Below are positions 28,105-38,814 of a stretch of DNA of 64,000 nt, piece after piece. The stretch lies in IMG/VR virus record IMGVR_UViG_3300027851_001140, positions 30,857 to 94,856 of that record. One strand, 5' to 3'. A program made the translations under genes and the position numbers. The notes beneath the pieces were generated by a model. It was not told the DNA's origin. It did not search any database and saw nothing but the letters and a program-made list of their open reading frames with translations. Each line of letters begins with the position of its first letter. Positions within the stretch are counted from its first letter, which is position 1. The stretch comes from a virus.

Positions 28105-31100
28105 TCAACGCCACACAGGGGGAACCTCAGTATCCGTGAGTGTGCCCGTTACAGAGAATGTGGCAGCCCCTCCATTTAGTGAGGGCCAACCAGGTGCCAA
28201 TGCACCACCATTTAGTTCATCCCAGCTAATACCGCCATCGACCCAGGCCCTAGCATCCGCCACTGCTGCCCAATGGTCAATGACCTGGTCATCTGTCAGT
28301 ACACCAGCAAGGTAAGCAACACCCAGAATTTCAAAATCCGCTGCTTCGGCGATACCAAAAGGGCCTAGGCCAATCACGGGTGCGATGCCAGTAGCAGTAA
28401 AGGAGCTTGCAGCACCTCCCGCTGCCCTGGATCCATTCACAGCACCATAAATGTTAGTACCATCAAAGATACAATGAAGCAGGCATAGCTTTCCTGCATT
28501 CGCAAACAATGACCCCGCTGGACCGAGTATGAACTGCGGTGCGCTGACGCCGTCACCAGATGAGAAATAAAACCCTTGTGTAACCTGCCATCCGACTAAA
28601 TATCCTGTATGGTTGATGAATGTGTTTGCCGTGTGTAGGAGCACGGAGTCAACAGGATCACGACGTCGAGGACGTGCAAGCACTGCTAGTGAGTACCCAG
28701 TAGGGTCCCCTTGGTAGTCTGAGGTTGTTGCTGTCATGTAGTCAGAGCCGCTAAATCCGCGAACTGCATCAAAGTTCACAGCACCACCACTAGGGTTACC
28801 TCCAACCAGCGTGCTGCCTACACGTCGTGCATATTCACCGTCAGCAATAGCACCAAGGGTAAGCAGTGTTGGTCCGCTTGTCTCCCTAATGCCTCGAACA
28901 TCCGGACTTGCAGCAGTACCCCCCAATTGTCCCCCGATAAGAACAGGGTCCCCACCAACAGCAGTAGCACCTGACCTTCTAAAGAATTGGCCGTCTGCAA
29001 TGGCCCCAAAAGTGAGCAGCGTGGGACCGCTGGTCTCTCGAACACCACGTACGTCCGGAACAGTAGTCGAACCACCAATTTGACCACCGATCTTTACTGA
29101 CGTAGAAGCGGGGTCTCCAACAAGGGCGAGACCAGAGAATTTATCATCGACAACACTTAGGGAACCTACCAGTGCCAGGTCGTTACTGCCAATGGCATCA
29201 GTAACAGTAGCGGGAACAGAACCAACTGGAAGTGAAGCGAAACTCCATCTTGACGTGAAGACTCCGTTAGGAAGATCTCCCGTAGCTAAGAATATTCTCA
29301 AGGCTTCTTCATGTTGAGCATCTGTCAGTACACCATCTGTCTTAGCGGCAAGAGCAAAGAGCGTAGCATTCTCCAATGCACCTGATGTTGCTGAACCGCC
29401 GGGACGTCCAACTCGAAATGGGTTCACGCTTGGAGTATACCCAGTCATTGCTGCAGAGAATATTGTCTGTCCTGCAATTTTCAAGAATCGCGTGGTTCCA
29501 TTGAAGCCCATAGAAAGGGGAACTAACGGCTTCCTAAATGTTGTACCTAAAAGCCACTCTTGTAGGAAATTACTGAGCAAGGTACTACTACCATCAGTAA
29601 TAGAGTGCCTTGGACGGTCCCCCTGCAGCCATAAGTGATATCCAGGACCCACGAACTCGCTCGCAGTGGACGCGATGTAGTTGTTTACGATTAGAGACCC
29701 CCGTAATAGCCCATCAACATTGAGGAGACCATAGATCTCAAATCCAGGGGAAGCATTGCCCGCAAGGTCTGCGGGAGTTGCTGCTTCTAAATAGTTCGCA
29801 AGCGTGAACCCTCGAATACCTCTGAAGGTGCTACTTCCACCACCAGGTATTCCACCGATTACTGATGTTCCGGAGCGTCGGAAGTACTCGCCGTCTGCAA
29901 CAGCACCCATTGTGAGGAGCGTAGGTCCACTGGTCTCACGTACGCCACGAACATCGGGGCTCGCTGCTGTTCCTCCGAGTTGACCCGCGAGATCTACTTT
30001 TGATCCGAGTTTTGTATCAGTATCATTACGTACTTCTACAATTGCTGCCTGTACATCAGTTGCTGCAATGTCCCCATTAGGTGTGAAGTCCACCTCCGAA
30101 CCCTGATAATCTAGAATGGTCTTTACAGACGCTGCAGAAAGAGCAGCAATAGGAGACCCCCCATCTGAGGCTCGACCAAGTATTGTGTTGTTTCCTACAG
30201 AAAGAGGACTTGGAGAACCCGTACCTGACTGTTGGACTAACAACGAGTGTGCAGGGGTATAATCACTCTCCATGACCGCACCGGCGGCAGCGACGTTTGC
30301 GGCATCGGTGACATCAGCATTTGTCTCTATGGTATCCAGCTTTGTTCCATCCGCAGAGACGTCACGACCATCTACTGTCCCCACATTTGAGACGTCCTGT
30401 CCTCCCATGTCGAGGTCTCCAGTCATGGCGCGCACGCCATTGACCAGGAGATATTGGGTATGATCGTCGTCGGCAAGCCCAGTCAATGCGCCGTGGTCTG
30501 TTACTCCACCGCCCGCTCCAATCTGTCTCCAAACAGCGGCACCTACAGAAGCATCGGCACAAAAATATATTTGTCTAGCTACTACGTCTACCCAAAGAGA
30601 CCCAACGGAATACCCTAAAGAAGAATCGCTAGAGGACGTGGGCCCCACTACCGCAAGAAGATTATCCTGCAAAACTGAGTAAGACCCTGCTCCAACACGA
30701 CGAAGAAATCCTACGTTAGAACCAGCAAAGTCACTACCCATGACTGCGCCAGCAGCCGCAACGTTGGCCGCATCTGTCACGTCAGCATTTGTTTCTATAG
30801 TATCAAGTTTGGCACCATCAACAGAAACATCTCTGCCATCTACGGTCCCAGGAGTGGATATGTTTCCGCCATCAGAGACAGTAACAACACTGTCCTTTAG
30901 ACTAGTTCCATCCACTCCATCAAATCTAGGGACAGCATTATTTGTGGAAGAAATAGGCCCAGTTACGAATCCACCAGGACCAGACCCATCCACGTAAGCA
31001 ATCGTAGCTCCTTCTGCGCCATCGTCGGAAGAGTCTGGGTTCTTACCAGTAGCCCAAGAAATAGCACCAGTTGAAGCCAGTCTGACTAACGTAGGACGTA

Positions 31101-35050: not shown

Positions 35051-35752
35051 ATGAAACTTTTAGCAGAAATGGGATTTGAGGCTCCGATAAAGAGGCCCAC
35101 CAAAAAGACAGAAAAAGAGCTAAAAGATATGATGGTCGCCTACATTGTCAACAATGACAGGTCTGCTCTAACGTCCAGAATAGAAGGTATACTGTATCTA
35201 CTGGAACACGGAAAGTACAAGCACATACTTGACCCTGGAAGCCAAGAATTTGCCTATAGGTTTATTGATACCAAAAATGTGTACCAGATGAGAGAAATAC
35301 TGAGAGTTCCTTTCCTCGAACCATCTGGCACGCCATACAAGATAGGCGGAGGAATATTGGTACCTGATGACAGGGGAATAAGCAGCTGGACCACGAATCC
35401 AAGATCTCTGGTGTACAGTGGGTTCTTCTCTGTCCTGCCCGAAGACAGCCATCTTGCTCTAGTTCGTGCAAGAATAAAAGAGAACAAGTTCTTCGGAAAT
35501 CCAGATAGTATGGCCTTATCCGTGGGCCTTCCAGAGGATTACTACGCCCCAGGCTACGCATTAGAAAGAGAAGTAGTAGGTGTAGGACCCATCTCGTATG
35601 ACGAAGGATACTTTGTAGCACGTAGGAGAGAAAGAAGCTTGGAGGGCCAAGCCATGGATTTAATAGATCGCCTTGTACCCATAAGTTCTATGGAAAAGGA
35701 AGACTGGACAGAGGATTATTACTTTCCAGATGGAGTAGATTTTAGGCCGTAA
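35051..35752 (+). CDS. Putative R-S-E clade ADP-ribosyltransferase
   Basis: Ordered motifs AYRF, ISSWTT, LEREVV. Confidence 0.5.
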   Translation: MKLLAEMGFEAPIKRPTKKTEKELKDMMVAYIVNNDRSALTSRIEGILYLLEHGKYKHILDPGSQEFAYRFIDTKNVYQMREILRVPFLEPSGTPYKIGGGILVPDDRGISSWTTNPRSLVYSGFFSVLPEDSHLALVRARIKENKFFGNPDSMALSVGLPEDYYAPGYALEREVVGVGPISYDEGYFVARRRERSLEGQAMDLIDRLVPISSMEKEDWTEDYYFPDGVDFRP

Positions 35753-36692
35753 TCCAAGCAGAATCATGACTCACTTTAGAGTCATAGATGCTGAATTCCA
35801 CTATTTCTTTCTCAACAGAGAAAGAGTTAGCCAGCAGGTCCCTTTTAATGGAGTCTACCCGTTCCCTAAAGTCTTCCTGAAGAAGAGTGTAACTCCTAAA
35901 AGTAACCATGATGGTGTATGTGCCATCATCGTACTTCTTAAATGCGTTCCTACTCTTGTGTGCCTGATGCTTCTTGGCAATGTCGTTCAGGGCAGACTCC
36001 CTGTCAGAAGTACAGAGAGTGTTGAGATGGCACTCGAAGTAGCAATTTGGAGGCATTTTGGCATTCTGGTGCAGTTTGGAGGGTGCTGCTGGGTGCCAAG
36101 GAATGGTTTCTATCTTCTCTCTAAGTACAGAGAACCCTTCGACATCTAGCCCAGTCGAAATTCTCTTCATCTCCTCAAAGGCAGCTCTGTTATCTCCCAT
36201 AATAATGGAGCTAGTCATTAGATCCTTCATGATCTTGTCATCTTTGAGATGAAGGTCCAGAAGAATTGGCTTGACCTTGAGACGATTGCATGCCTCCTTA
36301 AAAGAGGAGAGATTCATGTCGCTATGTGTAGGTGTGACAGTGACATGAATCTCGTATGGGATGGGGTAAGATACTCTTCCTTCCCTTGCTTGTAGGTCAG
36401 CCCATGTCTTCATTTTATGGGATACCATCTGCTCGAATTCTTCATCAGAAAAATCCATGTCATGAGCGATGGAAGTGAGGACCAGATAACAATCAGCTAG
36501 CTCCTCCAGGATACGGATTCTGTCTACGAAACGATGAGTGGTAGCATAAGCGTTTTCGTAAGGAAGGATAACCTTAGCCAGTTCGCCAACCTCTTCTGTA
36601 AGCTTGAGTGTCTTTTGAGCAAGAGTTTTCTTGTCCGCTTTGGACAGAGTTCGAATGTAGTCAAGAATCTTCTTTTCCATGGTATCTTTCAC
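35742..36692 (-). CDS. MazG-like NTP pyrophosphohydrolase fused to an unknown C-terminal domain
   Basis: KLTEEVGELAK...ILEELADC (EExxE...ExxD). Confidence 0.8.
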   Translation of the reverse strand: MKDTMEKKILDYIRTLSKADKKTLAQKTLKLTEEVGELAKVILPYENAYATTHRFVDRIRILEELADCYLVLTSIAHDMDFSDEEFEQMVSHKMKTWADLQAREGRVSYPIPYEIHVTVTPTHSDMNLSSFKEACNRLKVKPILLDLHLKDDKIMKDLMTSSIIMGDNRAAFEEMKRISTGLDVEGFSVLREKIETIPWHPAAPSKLHQNAKMPPNCYFECHLNTLCTSDRESALNDIAKKHQAHKSRNAFKKYDDGTYTIMVTFRSYTLLQEDFRERVDSIKRDLLANSFSVEKEIVEFSIYDSKVSHDSAWITA

Positions 36693-36904
36693 GACAAAAT
36701 GACGAACTCTTCTGAGTCCTCATCGTCAGCGTCACACTCCTGATAACCGCTTTCTGGACCACCTTCGTCATAAAAACAGTGGTCAACATCTGCCAAGGAA
36801 GCCCTACAGTAGATTCCTGGATAGGAGGTAGGAACAAGCACAGGAAGGTCTCCGTGCTTCTCCTTCAGCCGGGTTAGTCTGTCAATCAAGTCACTTACAC
36901 GCAT
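36689..36904 (-). CDS. Hypothetical small acidic protein
   Basis: MRVSDLIDRL...HGDLPV, a common phage small-protein pattern; coupled on both sides. Confidence 0.7.
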   Translation of the reverse strand: MRVSDLIDRLTRLKEKHGDLPVLVPTSYPGIYCRASLADVDHCFYDEGGPESGYQECDADDEDSEEFVILS

Positions 36905-37585
36905 CAGAAAAGCCCTTCCCAGATTCCTCGAAGGTAATCCTTGTACCGTATCTTGTTTCCGGACAAATGGTCGGTAACTATGCCGTCTTGCTGACGGACT
37001 GTACGTATCTTGTCGCCTCGCATACCGCTACCTACTTGATCTTTACGGGTCTTATCTCGTGCAGCGGTAGATTCCCTAAGACGATGCTCTTGAATCCTCG
37101 CAGCCAGAATCCTAAGAGCTAGCTCTCTATTTTGGTGTTGAGATCTCTCATTTTCTACTCGAACACGAATTCCAGTAGGAATATGAGTCATCTGAACGGC
37201 AGATTCAGTCTTGTTGCGGTGTTGTCCGCCTGCGCCTGAACCACGACAGGTGGACCATTCCACATCTTTCTCTGATATTGAAAAGGAAGAGTGTGAAGGT
37301 TCTTCAAGGACAGCAACGGTTACCGTTGAAGTCTGCACTCTACCGCGCTTTTCGGTCGGAGGTATGCGCTGAAACCTGTGTCCTCCAGATTCTTTAGAGA
37401 ATATCCTCTTAGCATCCTTGCCTTGCGCCTGAAATGCTACGAATCCGTCAGATTCTTCAATTAAAGCGTACTCAAAGACCCCTCCGGGTCATGAGGTTGA
37501 CGTAGATCTGAAGCTGGTCCTTGACCAAAAGTTTGGCGTCCTGTCCGCCTTCACCCGCTCTAATTTCCACTATGACGCTTTCCAT
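36904..37585 (-). CDS. Class I peptide chain release factor, RF1-like, lacking domain 1; 226 aa via +1 frameshift at codon 37
   Basis: Frame 0 MESVIVEIRAGEGGQDAKLLV...TRRGL-stop with GAGG RBS; +1 frame EYALIE...ESGGHRFQRIPPTEKRGRVQTSTVTVAV...GSGAGGQHRNKTESAV...ERSQHQNR. Confidence 0.92.
37471..37486 (-). promoter_or_regulatory. RF2-type programmed +1 frameshift cassette
   Basis: Minus strand CGG AGG GGT CTT TGA G: internal SD GGAGG, 3-nt spacer, CTT-TGA; joins two halves of one release factor. Confidence 0.9.
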
Positions 37586-37592
37586 GGTTTCC

Positions 37593-37934
37593 TCAATTCA
37601 TAAAACGAGACAGATTTACTGTCCCAGATATGTGTAAGTCAGGTAGAGTAAATAGGAGTACCCCAGGATCTCTCACCCCCAGATACGGGGAGGTCATTTC
37701 AAGTAAATGAGATCGGTACTCATCAGAAAGGGTATATCCCAGGGGGACTATAAGAGACCCCTTGTAGTCAAGGCTTCCAAGCCACTCTCCTACCTGATGA
37801 AGGTACTCGTCATCATCCACTGCCTCCGATTCCTTTACATACTTGAAGTAGGAGCAGGAGGGATGCCTCTCTCCATTTACTCCACCACAGCACAAACAAA
37901 TGAAATCAAAGTCTGACTCTTCCACCAGAGTCAC
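37593..37934 (-). CDS. Hypothetical protein
   Basis: 113 aa with C..CGG...H..C; ends at the RBS of the release factor gene. Confidence 0.55.
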   Translation of the reverse strand: MTLVEESDFDFICLCCGGVNGERHPSCSYFKYVKESEAVDDDEYLHQVGEWLGSLDYKGSLIVPLGYTLSDEYRSHLLEMTSPYLGVRDPGVLLFTLPDLHISGTVNLSRFMN

Positions 37935-38466: not shown

Positions 38467-38814
38467 ATGTACCCTACACTGTCTTCACTTTTTAGAGAGG
38501 CCCCTCCGGTAGATGTGTACGATACCGAAGAGGGAAGGTTTGTCGAAATGGAAATGGCTGGGCTCAAGTCAGAGCATGTGCAAATCGAAGTAGAAGGAAG
38601 TACCCTTTTGGTTCGAACCGCCCCTCCAGCCACAAAAGAACGAGTCTACCTACACAGAGAACGGCTGACTCCAGATTATTCCGACAGGAGAATAAAGCTT
38701 CCTGCATCCGTAGACACTGAAAAGATCGAAGCCACCATGGCGGATGGTCTTTTAACCATTCGTCTTCCGCTACGAAGCAAGCCTTCTCCCATACCTATCA
38801 GAGTAAACGGATGA
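38467..38814 (+). CDS. Small heat shock protein (Hsp20/alpha-crystallin)
   Basis: PPVDVYDT...EMAGL...RRIKLPASVD.EKIEATMADGLLTIRLP...IPI. Confidence 0.92.
   Translation: MYPTLSSLFREAPPVDVYDTEEGRFVEMEMAGLKSEHVQIEVEGSTLLVRTAPPATKERVYLHRERLTPDYSDRRIKLPASVDTEKIEATMADGLLTIRLPLRSKPSPIPIRVNG

Follow-up and report, generated by a model that had tools for sequence, protein, structure and literature searches.

A prfB-like cassette for predicted +1 frameshifting splits the gene of an RF1-derived release factor lacking domain 1 in large phages

A gene for a class-I release factor divided between two reading frames has been found in a stretch of phage DNA of 64,000 nucleotides, corresponding to positions 30,857 to 94,856 of the IMG/VR record IMGVR_UViG_3300027851_001140 (the whole stretch is called the window, and coordinates are counted from its first base). 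The record measures 94.8 kb, is estimated to be 24% complete, and belongs to a large freshwater/wastewater phage. The encoded factor derives from bacterial RF1 and lacks domain 1. The gene is interrupted after 37 codons by a cassette resembling that of prfB, the RF2 gene, which is made of a Shine-Dalgarno (SD)-like GGAGG, a spacer of 3 nucleotides (nt), the codon CTT and an in-frame TGA. A +1 frameshift at CTT would join the two halves in a product of 226 amino acids (aa). Judging from sequence comparisons, the shift is very probably programmed and used (probability about 0.9). The stop codon at which translation either ends or shifts, hereafter the gate, would sense host RF2, and not the product itself, a reading to which slightly better than even odds are given (about 0.55).

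The anatomy of the locus is detailed in Table 1. The 37-codon frame reads in full MESVIVEIRAGEGGQDAKLLVKDQLQIYVNLMTRRGL. Its translation starts with MESVIVEIRAGEGGQ and ends with TRRGL, and its 3' end reads CGG AGG GGT CTT TGA G. A preliminary description of the window, made from the sequence alone, had pointed to this frame, to its ATG and GAGG ribosome-binding site, to the EIRAGEGG motif and to the shift site, and all are read in the sequence. As the description also had it, past a slip at CTT-T the +1 frame is open to 36904, and the joined product contains HRFQRIPPTEKRGRVQTS and GAGGQ. The description had moreover noticed that the plain list of open reading frames (ORFs) of the window shows only a GTG-started tail of the factor, 144 aa long, and this is how the list reads. 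Public gene callers similarly split the locus into unnamed proteins of 37 and 119/144 aa, and according to public gene calls the proteins of the gene are also found on a 183-kb contig. The internal GTG at 37338 was discarded as a genuine start, as it lacks an SD and the resulting GGQ-only protein of 144 aa would have a truncated recognition domain. Within the 64 kb of the window the pattern GGAGGNNNCTTTGA is seen a single time, the expected number being 0.05. Folding of the RNA around the shift site gave an unremarkable z-score (-1.7), and no stimulatory structure was recognized there.

Comparison of the locus with GenBank phages by blastn gave no match, and relatives were obtained by protein searches. 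The best GenBank phage match, LR745208.1, is an uncultured huge phage of 485 kb, 50% identical, which features the same CGG AGG GGT CTT TGA, followed by C, after codon 37. Two scans of IMG/VR yielded 513 relatives. In all, 93 non-redundant loci, almost all viral and mostly residing on contigs of 90-620 kb, were analysed (L and G numbers denote relative loci and the genomes of relatives, respectively). A +1 shift at a CTT-stop is found in 65 of the 93 loci (50 TGA, 13 TAG, 2 TAA) and an in-frame stop, located within the first ~55 codons, in 16 (14 TGA, 2 TAG). Only 12 are uninterrupted, and a gate, whether frameshift or in-frame stop, is kept in 87% of the relatives. Gate codons over the whole family are UGA in 64 cases, UAG in 15 and UAA in 2. 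The preliminary description had proposed to check the conservation of the cassette, which is in fact preserved in relatives down to ~45% identity; the family adds UAG, UAA and in-frame-stop gates, all invisible from the window sequence alone. The position of the gate also varies. A second site is located 9-13 codons downstream, where L013-L029 have an in-frame TGA or TAG, and where L023 and L170 shift at CTT-TGA-C. At a third site, seen in an AT-rich clade, TGA takes the place of the Trp codon of an ungated relative.

Slip codon, stop context and SD have been scored automatically in 61 of the shifted genes. The slip codon is CTT in all 61, while outside the slip site CTT accounts for 17% of their Leu codons. 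The base 3' of the gate stop is C in 47 genes, G in 9, A in 5, and T in none. GGAGG is found exactly 3 nt before CTT in 35 of the 61, the spacer being invariably of 3 nt in the relatives bearing this motif; another 14 have part of an SD, and the remaining 12 hardly any or none. At the aligned Arg-Arg-Gly codons, GGAGG is found in 0 of 18 relatives that are ungated or differently gated, and it is thus the shift, rather than the encoded amino acids, that the SD accompanies. In uninterrupted relatives a single frame encodes ...RRGF-E... or ...HGL-E..., which is the junction predicted for the +1 product of the window. In one of these relatives GGT TTT GAG stands in place of the GGT CTT TGA G of the window, and insertion of one base may have been enough to give rise to the gate. 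An exact scan of viral contigs with a 14-mer was abandoned: 7 of the 80 listed matches fell in release-factor genes, a 14-mer being too short for the collection.

Among the best 80 matches in bacterial genomes, 79 are ordinary, uninterrupted RF1 genes, with a 112-aa domain 1 and a PxT loop. The lone exception, L170, is a short gated gene located on a 25-kb contig of a metagenome-assembled genome. A quick maximum-likelihood tree, in which 89 short factors were placed with 16 bacterial RF1, recovers the short family as monophyletic (support 100 in the Shimodaira-Hasegawa-like approximate likelihood ratio test, SH-aLRT). With RF1 as the root, uninterrupted forms occupy basal positions. All the gated forms fall in a single clade (support 95). 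Within this clade TAG gates need at least 9 changes, at least 3 of which are forced by well-supported branches. Sister genes may have different gates, as seen for L014 (TGA) and L139 (TAG), for L076 and L077 (in-frame TGA and in-frame TAG, respectively), and for L081/L093 (TGA) and L114/L128 (TAG).

A sequencing or assembly indel, or the decay of a pseudogene, might also split an ordinary release-factor gene. The unnamed pieces into which gene callers break the locus would be in line with this, and some relatives are truly broken, L032 by an insertion sequence (IS) and L148 by an extra base in a run of seven G. The preliminary description had suggested looking for an indel. None is found at the site: positions 37472-37485 are covered by Logan contigs from three other studies (wastewater and aquatic), all free of indels and substitutions there. 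The shift site is likewise intact in a 252-nt contig from a metatranscriptome (RNA) library, though a contig can show neither expression nor frameshift. The same +1 break at CTT-stop is shared by 65 relatives of 45-80% identity, both halves of the gene are under purifying selection, and GGQ is invariant. The hypothesis of an artefact or a pseudogene is effectively refuted. Minor differences were noted at the far end of the gene. At window 36907, in the last release-factor codon, one base is missing in one low-depth contig of run X3, which also misses three bases at 36717; in the other two independent runs 36907 carries a synonymous G>A change (Phe). These differences may represent strain variation or a contig-end artefact.

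The genome uses the standard code: ORFs of at least 100 aa cover 93.7% of the 94.8-kb record, and the commonest stop is TGA (67 TGA, 31 TAA, 22 TAG). An alternative code for the window was rejected also because frame 0, when TGA is taken as sense, meets further stops. As independent contigs are intact and the genome is standard, the break is neither an assembly error nor a sign of recoding. Code 4 was similarly considered, and rejected, for the phages hosting the in-frame-TGA relatives L004 and L005. Over 50 kb of either genome the long ORFs do not change under code 4, and TGG is far more frequent than in-frame TGA. No stop-to-Trp excess was detected within homologous matches in G004 and G005. 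In-frame TGAs are thus gene-specific gates, because the genomes carrying them use the standard code. Two phages of 630 kb and 27-29% GC, L352 (LR745206.1, 25000-74999) and L353 (LR756504.1, 545000-594999), are not TGA-recoded: long ORFs come out identical whether code 11 or code 4 is applied, and in-frame TGA is far rarer than TGG. Their release-factor genes contain 1-2 in-frame TGAs, the first of which aligns to a Trp of the ungated L027.

The preliminary description had assigned the product to the RF1 type and had noted the lack of domain 1, and both statements hold. The Pfam profile RF-1 is matched with E 4e-32, and PCRF with E 5e-20, only at profile positions 101-194 of 194; the start of the PCRF match corresponds to residue 87 of Thermotoga maritima RF1. 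Among NCBIfam models, prfA scores 213-217 bits, prfB 145 and prfH 95. All three lie below cut-off, the prfA scores (TIGR00019 / NF001859) being about half of theirs, 423 and 400. The best match in PDB is T. maritima RF1 (1rq0), residues 87-299, with E 1e-48, against 1e-27 for RF2; the alignment bits are ~98 for RF2 and 70 for PrfH. The RF1 alignment is continuous across the junction (rrg..leyalieesd vs RKGwnLEVAEIHETD), and identity to bacterial RF1 is 40-49%. The AlphaFold (AF2) model of the joined 226 aa has a mean predicted local distance difference test (pLDDT) score of 88.9, reaching 94-96 around the junction (residues 31-50), with a helix (15-34) followed by a strand (38-45). The model fits ribosome-bound Thermus thermophilus RF1 (4v63) with a template modelling (TM) score of 0.90 and a root-mean-square deviation of 2.1 A; TM is 0.85 for RF2 and 0.68 for PrfH. 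The ranking of RF1 over RF2 rests on hidden Markov model (HMM), PDB and fold scores, the tree having been built without RF2 sequences.

Domain 1 is absent, because only 6 residues precede EIRAGEGG in the protein and Pfam recognizes nothing in the upstream 113-aa ORF. The N-terminus of bacterial RF1, the part contacting RF3 and L11, measures 110-115 aa in 79/79 loci, and the phage factor misses the whole ~112-aa domain. Only residues 99-133 match the ArfB model (42.6 bits vs a cut-off of 100), and a full domain 2/4 is present, unlike in ArfB / ICT1-type proteins, which consist of the GGQ domain and a basic tail alone. The PrfH model (TIGR03072) is matched with 95 bits, below the cut-off of 166.65, and RtcB (PF01139) was not found in the 94.8-kb record, itself ~24% complete.

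The RF1 determinants listed in the preliminary description, PxT and the Q and T of R.QR/xTS, are matched, though not cleanly. The tripeptide of the window, PPT (P75-P76-T77), fits the PxT pattern, but x is Pro in 0/79 bacterial RF1. The tip of helix alpha5 reads GGQD, the Asp being shared by 84/89 family members vs Glu in 79/79 bacterial RF1. The His that precedes TS in RF1 is moreover replaced by Gln in the window factor. Most members of the family have the tripeptide PPT, 11 have PPN and ~7 SPT/SPL, and in 5-7 it is deleted. Members gated by UGA have PPT (41), PPN (9) or SPT (2); those gated by UAG have PPT (6), PPN (2), SPT (2) or SPL (1). No trend linking the gate codon to the tripeptide or to the His/Gln residues was seen, only 4 independent pairs being well supported, which makes the comparison underpowered. 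Members with a deleted loop (L003, L086, L114, L128, L132) are still gated, and the gate codon differs between well-supported sister genes in which the loop is mostly unchanged. Both observations argue that the gate is read by a host factor. The preliminary description had left open whether the product or host RF2 is sensed; between the two, the family data appear to lean to host sensing.

We infer the following course of events. Ribosomes starting at ATG 37585 would pause after 37 codons, with CUU in the P site and UGA in the A site. Pairing of GGAGG with the anti-SD of 16S rRNA would promote the forward slip of peptidyl-tRNA-Leu onto UUU, and GAG would then occupy the A site. If host RF2 came first to UGA, the 37-aa peptide would be released; otherwise, the shift would lead to the 226-aa factor. 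Because termination competes with slippage, as in the mechanism described for prfB (PMC12421855, PMC10885494), synthesis of the factor would be inversely coupled to UGA termination capacity, that is to RF2 in a standard-code host, and its output would go up when this capacity is low and down when it is high. The product would bind the A site as RF1 does, hydrolyse peptidyl-tRNA via GGQ and, having no domain 1, act without RF3 recycling. According to passages of PMC1586002, codon-specific release does not require domain 1 and a truncated RF1 is functional in vivo, but RF3 action needs domain 1. By the tripeptide rule (Ito 2000, as related in a passage of PMC5776981) the PPT factor most likely reads UAA and UAG. 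This would top up termination and free RF2 for the many UGA stops of the phage.

Several points weigh against host RF2 as the sensed factor. An RF1-type product placed behind an RF2 codon would bring an indirect benefit only, and a UGA-rich phage would be better served by an RF2-type factor, which is the main weakness. The base following the stop is G in the window, and not C, the weakest context. The decoding residues of the family, middle Pro and alpha5-tip Asp, are unusual. Specificity is not readable from the tripeptide alone, since, according to passages of PMC5776981 and PMC7530605, single changes outside the loop make RF2 omnipotent. The gate, finally, is not simply the commonest stop of the phage, a rule that was tried and rejected, as G001 and G003 are TGA-rich yet TAG-gated (by raw ORF counts, noisy at high GC).

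The gate might rather be read by the short factor itself. With a specificity widened to UGA, or to all stops, the factor would terminate at its own gate, as RF2 does in prfB. Such true autoregulation is possible, although not probable. The anatomy is that of prfB, and giant-virus release factors use internal frameshift and readthrough as feedback (PMC3521657). All three stops are used as gates and are frequently switched, as would be easy if the factor read all of them, and TGA is the main stop of the phage. The features departing from RF1 (the alpha5-tip Asp, a central Pro like that of the SPF of RF2, the ~7 SPT hybrids) also speak for it, and the passages quoted above make omnipotence attainable by single substitutions. 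However, the first tripeptide residue is Pro in the 41 PPT and 9 PPN UGA-gated members, and the rule excludes G at codon position 2 in these. Gate codon and loop residues are unassociated in independent pairs, though the supported pairs are only four, loop-deleted members keep the gate, and RF1 ranks above RF2 by HMM, sequence and fold scores. If autoregulation were true, the phage would supply a self-limiting, RF3-independent, all-purpose terminator. In a more radical and somewhat more doubtful version, short phage factors would be single omnipotent terminators, reading UAA, UAG and UGA, RF3-free, and self-limiting at whichever stop is the gate. This would be a one-factor termination system with its own feedback, convergent with prfB and the giant-virus factor, and infected cells would become independent of both host release factors.

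The gate could alternatively work as a fixed attenuator, keeping a potentially toxic factor low and constant, with sensitivity to release factors as a by-product. The frequencies of UGA, UAG and UAA gates follow the known leakiness order, 9-12 of the shifted genes are without any SD-like element, and release-factor overexpression lowers fitness (PMC12421855). Yet a weak ribosome-binding site or promoter would be far simpler than gates which arose at no fewer than 3 positions by two mechanisms, frameshift and in-frame stop, and which most relatives keep with an invariant CTT and a precisely spaced SD. Furthermore, any stop-based gate must physically respond to release-factor activity. An attenuator is therefore quite unlikely, and sensing of host RF2 is the reading preferred.

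Table 1. Position of the elements of the release-factor locus in the window.
Feature	Position	Strand	Remarks
Ribosome-binding site GAGG	37591..37594	-	5 nt before the ATG; overlaps the stop (TGA, 37595-37593) of the upstream 113-aa ORF; read directly
ORF1, frame 0	37472..37585	-	ATG 37585-37583; 37 codons + TGA; class-I release factor, from its first strand to helix alpha5 (EIRAGEGGQDA...); crossed by the Pfam PCRF and PDB RF1 alignments
Internal SD-like GGAGG	37481..37485	-	GGAGGGG extends to 37479; 3 nt upstream of the slip codon (spacer GGT, 37480-37478)
Shift site CTT TGA	37472..37477	-	CTT 37477-37475, TGA 37474-37472, then G 37471
ORF2, +1 frame	36904..37473	-	189 codons, from GAG 37473 to TGA 36906-36904; rest of domain 2/4 and GGQ domain 3
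Tripeptide 'anticodon' Pro75-Pro76-Thr77, codons	37354..37362	-	Inside QRIPPTEKRGRVQTS
Catalytic GGQ (G119 G120 Q121), codons	37222..37230	-	GGQ invariant in both family alignments
Downstream 71-aa ORF	36689..36904	-	ATG shares its A with the release-factor TGA (TGATG)

Translation of the downstream 71-aa ORF is probably coupled to that of the frameshift product. Since L007, the closest relative, is alone in conserving this ORF, the latter is to be seen as context and not as part of the family device. Its stop overlaps the GTG of a 316-aa protein (window 35742-36904, minus strand), which shows a weak N-terminal MazG/dUTPase-like match (E 0.0015). As their start and stop codons overlap in series, expression of both the 71-aa ORF and the 316-aa MazG fusion may depend on the frameshift. 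A MazG fusion adjoining the release-factor gene was found in no relative. A gene for a small heat-shock protein of the HSP20 / alpha-crystallin type (window 38467-38814, plus strand, Pfam E 7e-16) precedes the release-factor operon by ~900 bases, in opposite orientation, and is kept in L007. MazG fusion, 71-aa ORF, 113-aa ORF and HSP20 were all considered as conserved partner genes and rejected, being common to the nearest one or two relatives only.

Some relatives have peculiarities of their own. In L032 (857-3000) an insert of 2.1 kb interrupts the release-factor gene, which has CTT-TAG-C as its gate, after residue ~105. The insert hosts a 225-aa ORF and a 319-aa ORF resembling, from its N-terminal zinc-ribbon sequence, IS1595/ISXO2-type transposases. 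An intron was considered and discarded in favour of an IS-like insertion, as no Rfam match was obtained. L148 features a second one-base excess at ~1640-1660, where a run of seven G precedes the GGHRFQ codons; the extra base probably reflects missequencing of the homopolymer rather than another programmed shift. G004 (389 kb) and G005 (345 kb), two in-frame-TGA huge phages, encode a tRNA with anticodon CTA, of the amber-suppressor type (L052:3181-3255 and L063:2917-2992). No genome-wide TAG recoding was seen in homologous matches between the two. G005 hosts in addition a transfer-messenger RNA (tmRNA; L069:6555-6937) and an array of 37 tRNAs, ~8 kb from the release-factor gene.

Huge and stop-codon-recoded phages are known to carry RF1 and RF2 as part of a translation toolkit (Al-Shayeb 2020, PMC7162821; Borges 2021, 10.1101/2021.08.26.457843), and the best database match of the window factor, LR745208.1, comes from one such huge phage. 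In these reports RF1 is tied to TGA-recoded phages, whereas the window phage and the gated relatives tested use the standard code, and neither the gate nor the loss of domain 1 is mentioned. No published description of the phage family was found, reviews of jumbo phages and release-factor evolution included, in a search covering few subscription journals. Annotation pipelines now split the whole protein family into two unnamed fragments. For phage biology, the gate is a candidate sensor of termination capacity in infected cells. A domain-1-less, RF3-independent factor with a known on-switch could in turn serve cell-free and genetic-code-expansion systems.

Known factors resemble the phage product each in part. 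With bacterial RF1 (prfA) it shares domains 2, 3 and 4, GGQ, a tripeptide of the PxT type and, in the third-base pocket, Q and T. It differs in the absence of domain 1, the middle Pro, the Asp at the alpha5 tip, the Gln replacing His before TS, and the interrupted ORF. PrfH (RFH), which is paired with RtcB and rescues damaged ribosomes (PMC1586002, PMC9304027), similarly has no domain 1, measures ~200-230 aa and contains GGQ, but the phage protein keeps an RF1-like recognition loop and its fold is much closer to RF1. The termination factor of Mimivirus and Megavirus (Jeudy et al. 2012, PMC3521657) is also viral, and its gene has internal stops passed by recoding, which have been read as feedback. 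Frameshift and readthrough are both found there, as the phage family has a frameshift and a readthrough form. The factor of these amoeba viruses is however of the eRF1 (eukaryotic/archaeal) type, while that of phages is a bacterial RF1 derivative. As the two are unrelated in sequence, the devices are a case of convergence.

The closest likeness is to prfB. GGAGG, 3-nt spacer, CUU slip codon, early in-frame UGA and a release factor as product are common to both. The programmed CUU-UGA +1 frameshift is a textbook example of autoregulation at the level of translation. In a 2025 survey of 12,000 genomes (PMC12421855) it was confined to prfB, no convincing programmed frameshift was found in prfA, and TAG was absent from 8,164 prfB motifs. 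The phage gene differs in being RF1-type, and in being gated, in relatives, by UAG (13) and UAA (2) also. The UGA of the window is followed by G, that of prfB by C. By the tripeptide rule, given Pro as first residue, the phage product is predicted not to read its own gate. The phage site lies at about residues 119-124 of T. maritima RF1, after alpha5, whereas the prfB site is at codon 25-26, in domain 1; that the two places are not orthologous had been correctly seen in the preliminary description. All this indicates that the prfB device arose independently, elsewhere in the gene, in an RF1-derived gene of large phages. UGA, UAG, UAA, in-frame readthrough and uninterrupted versions would form a convergent series, endowed with natural controls for what the cassette needs.

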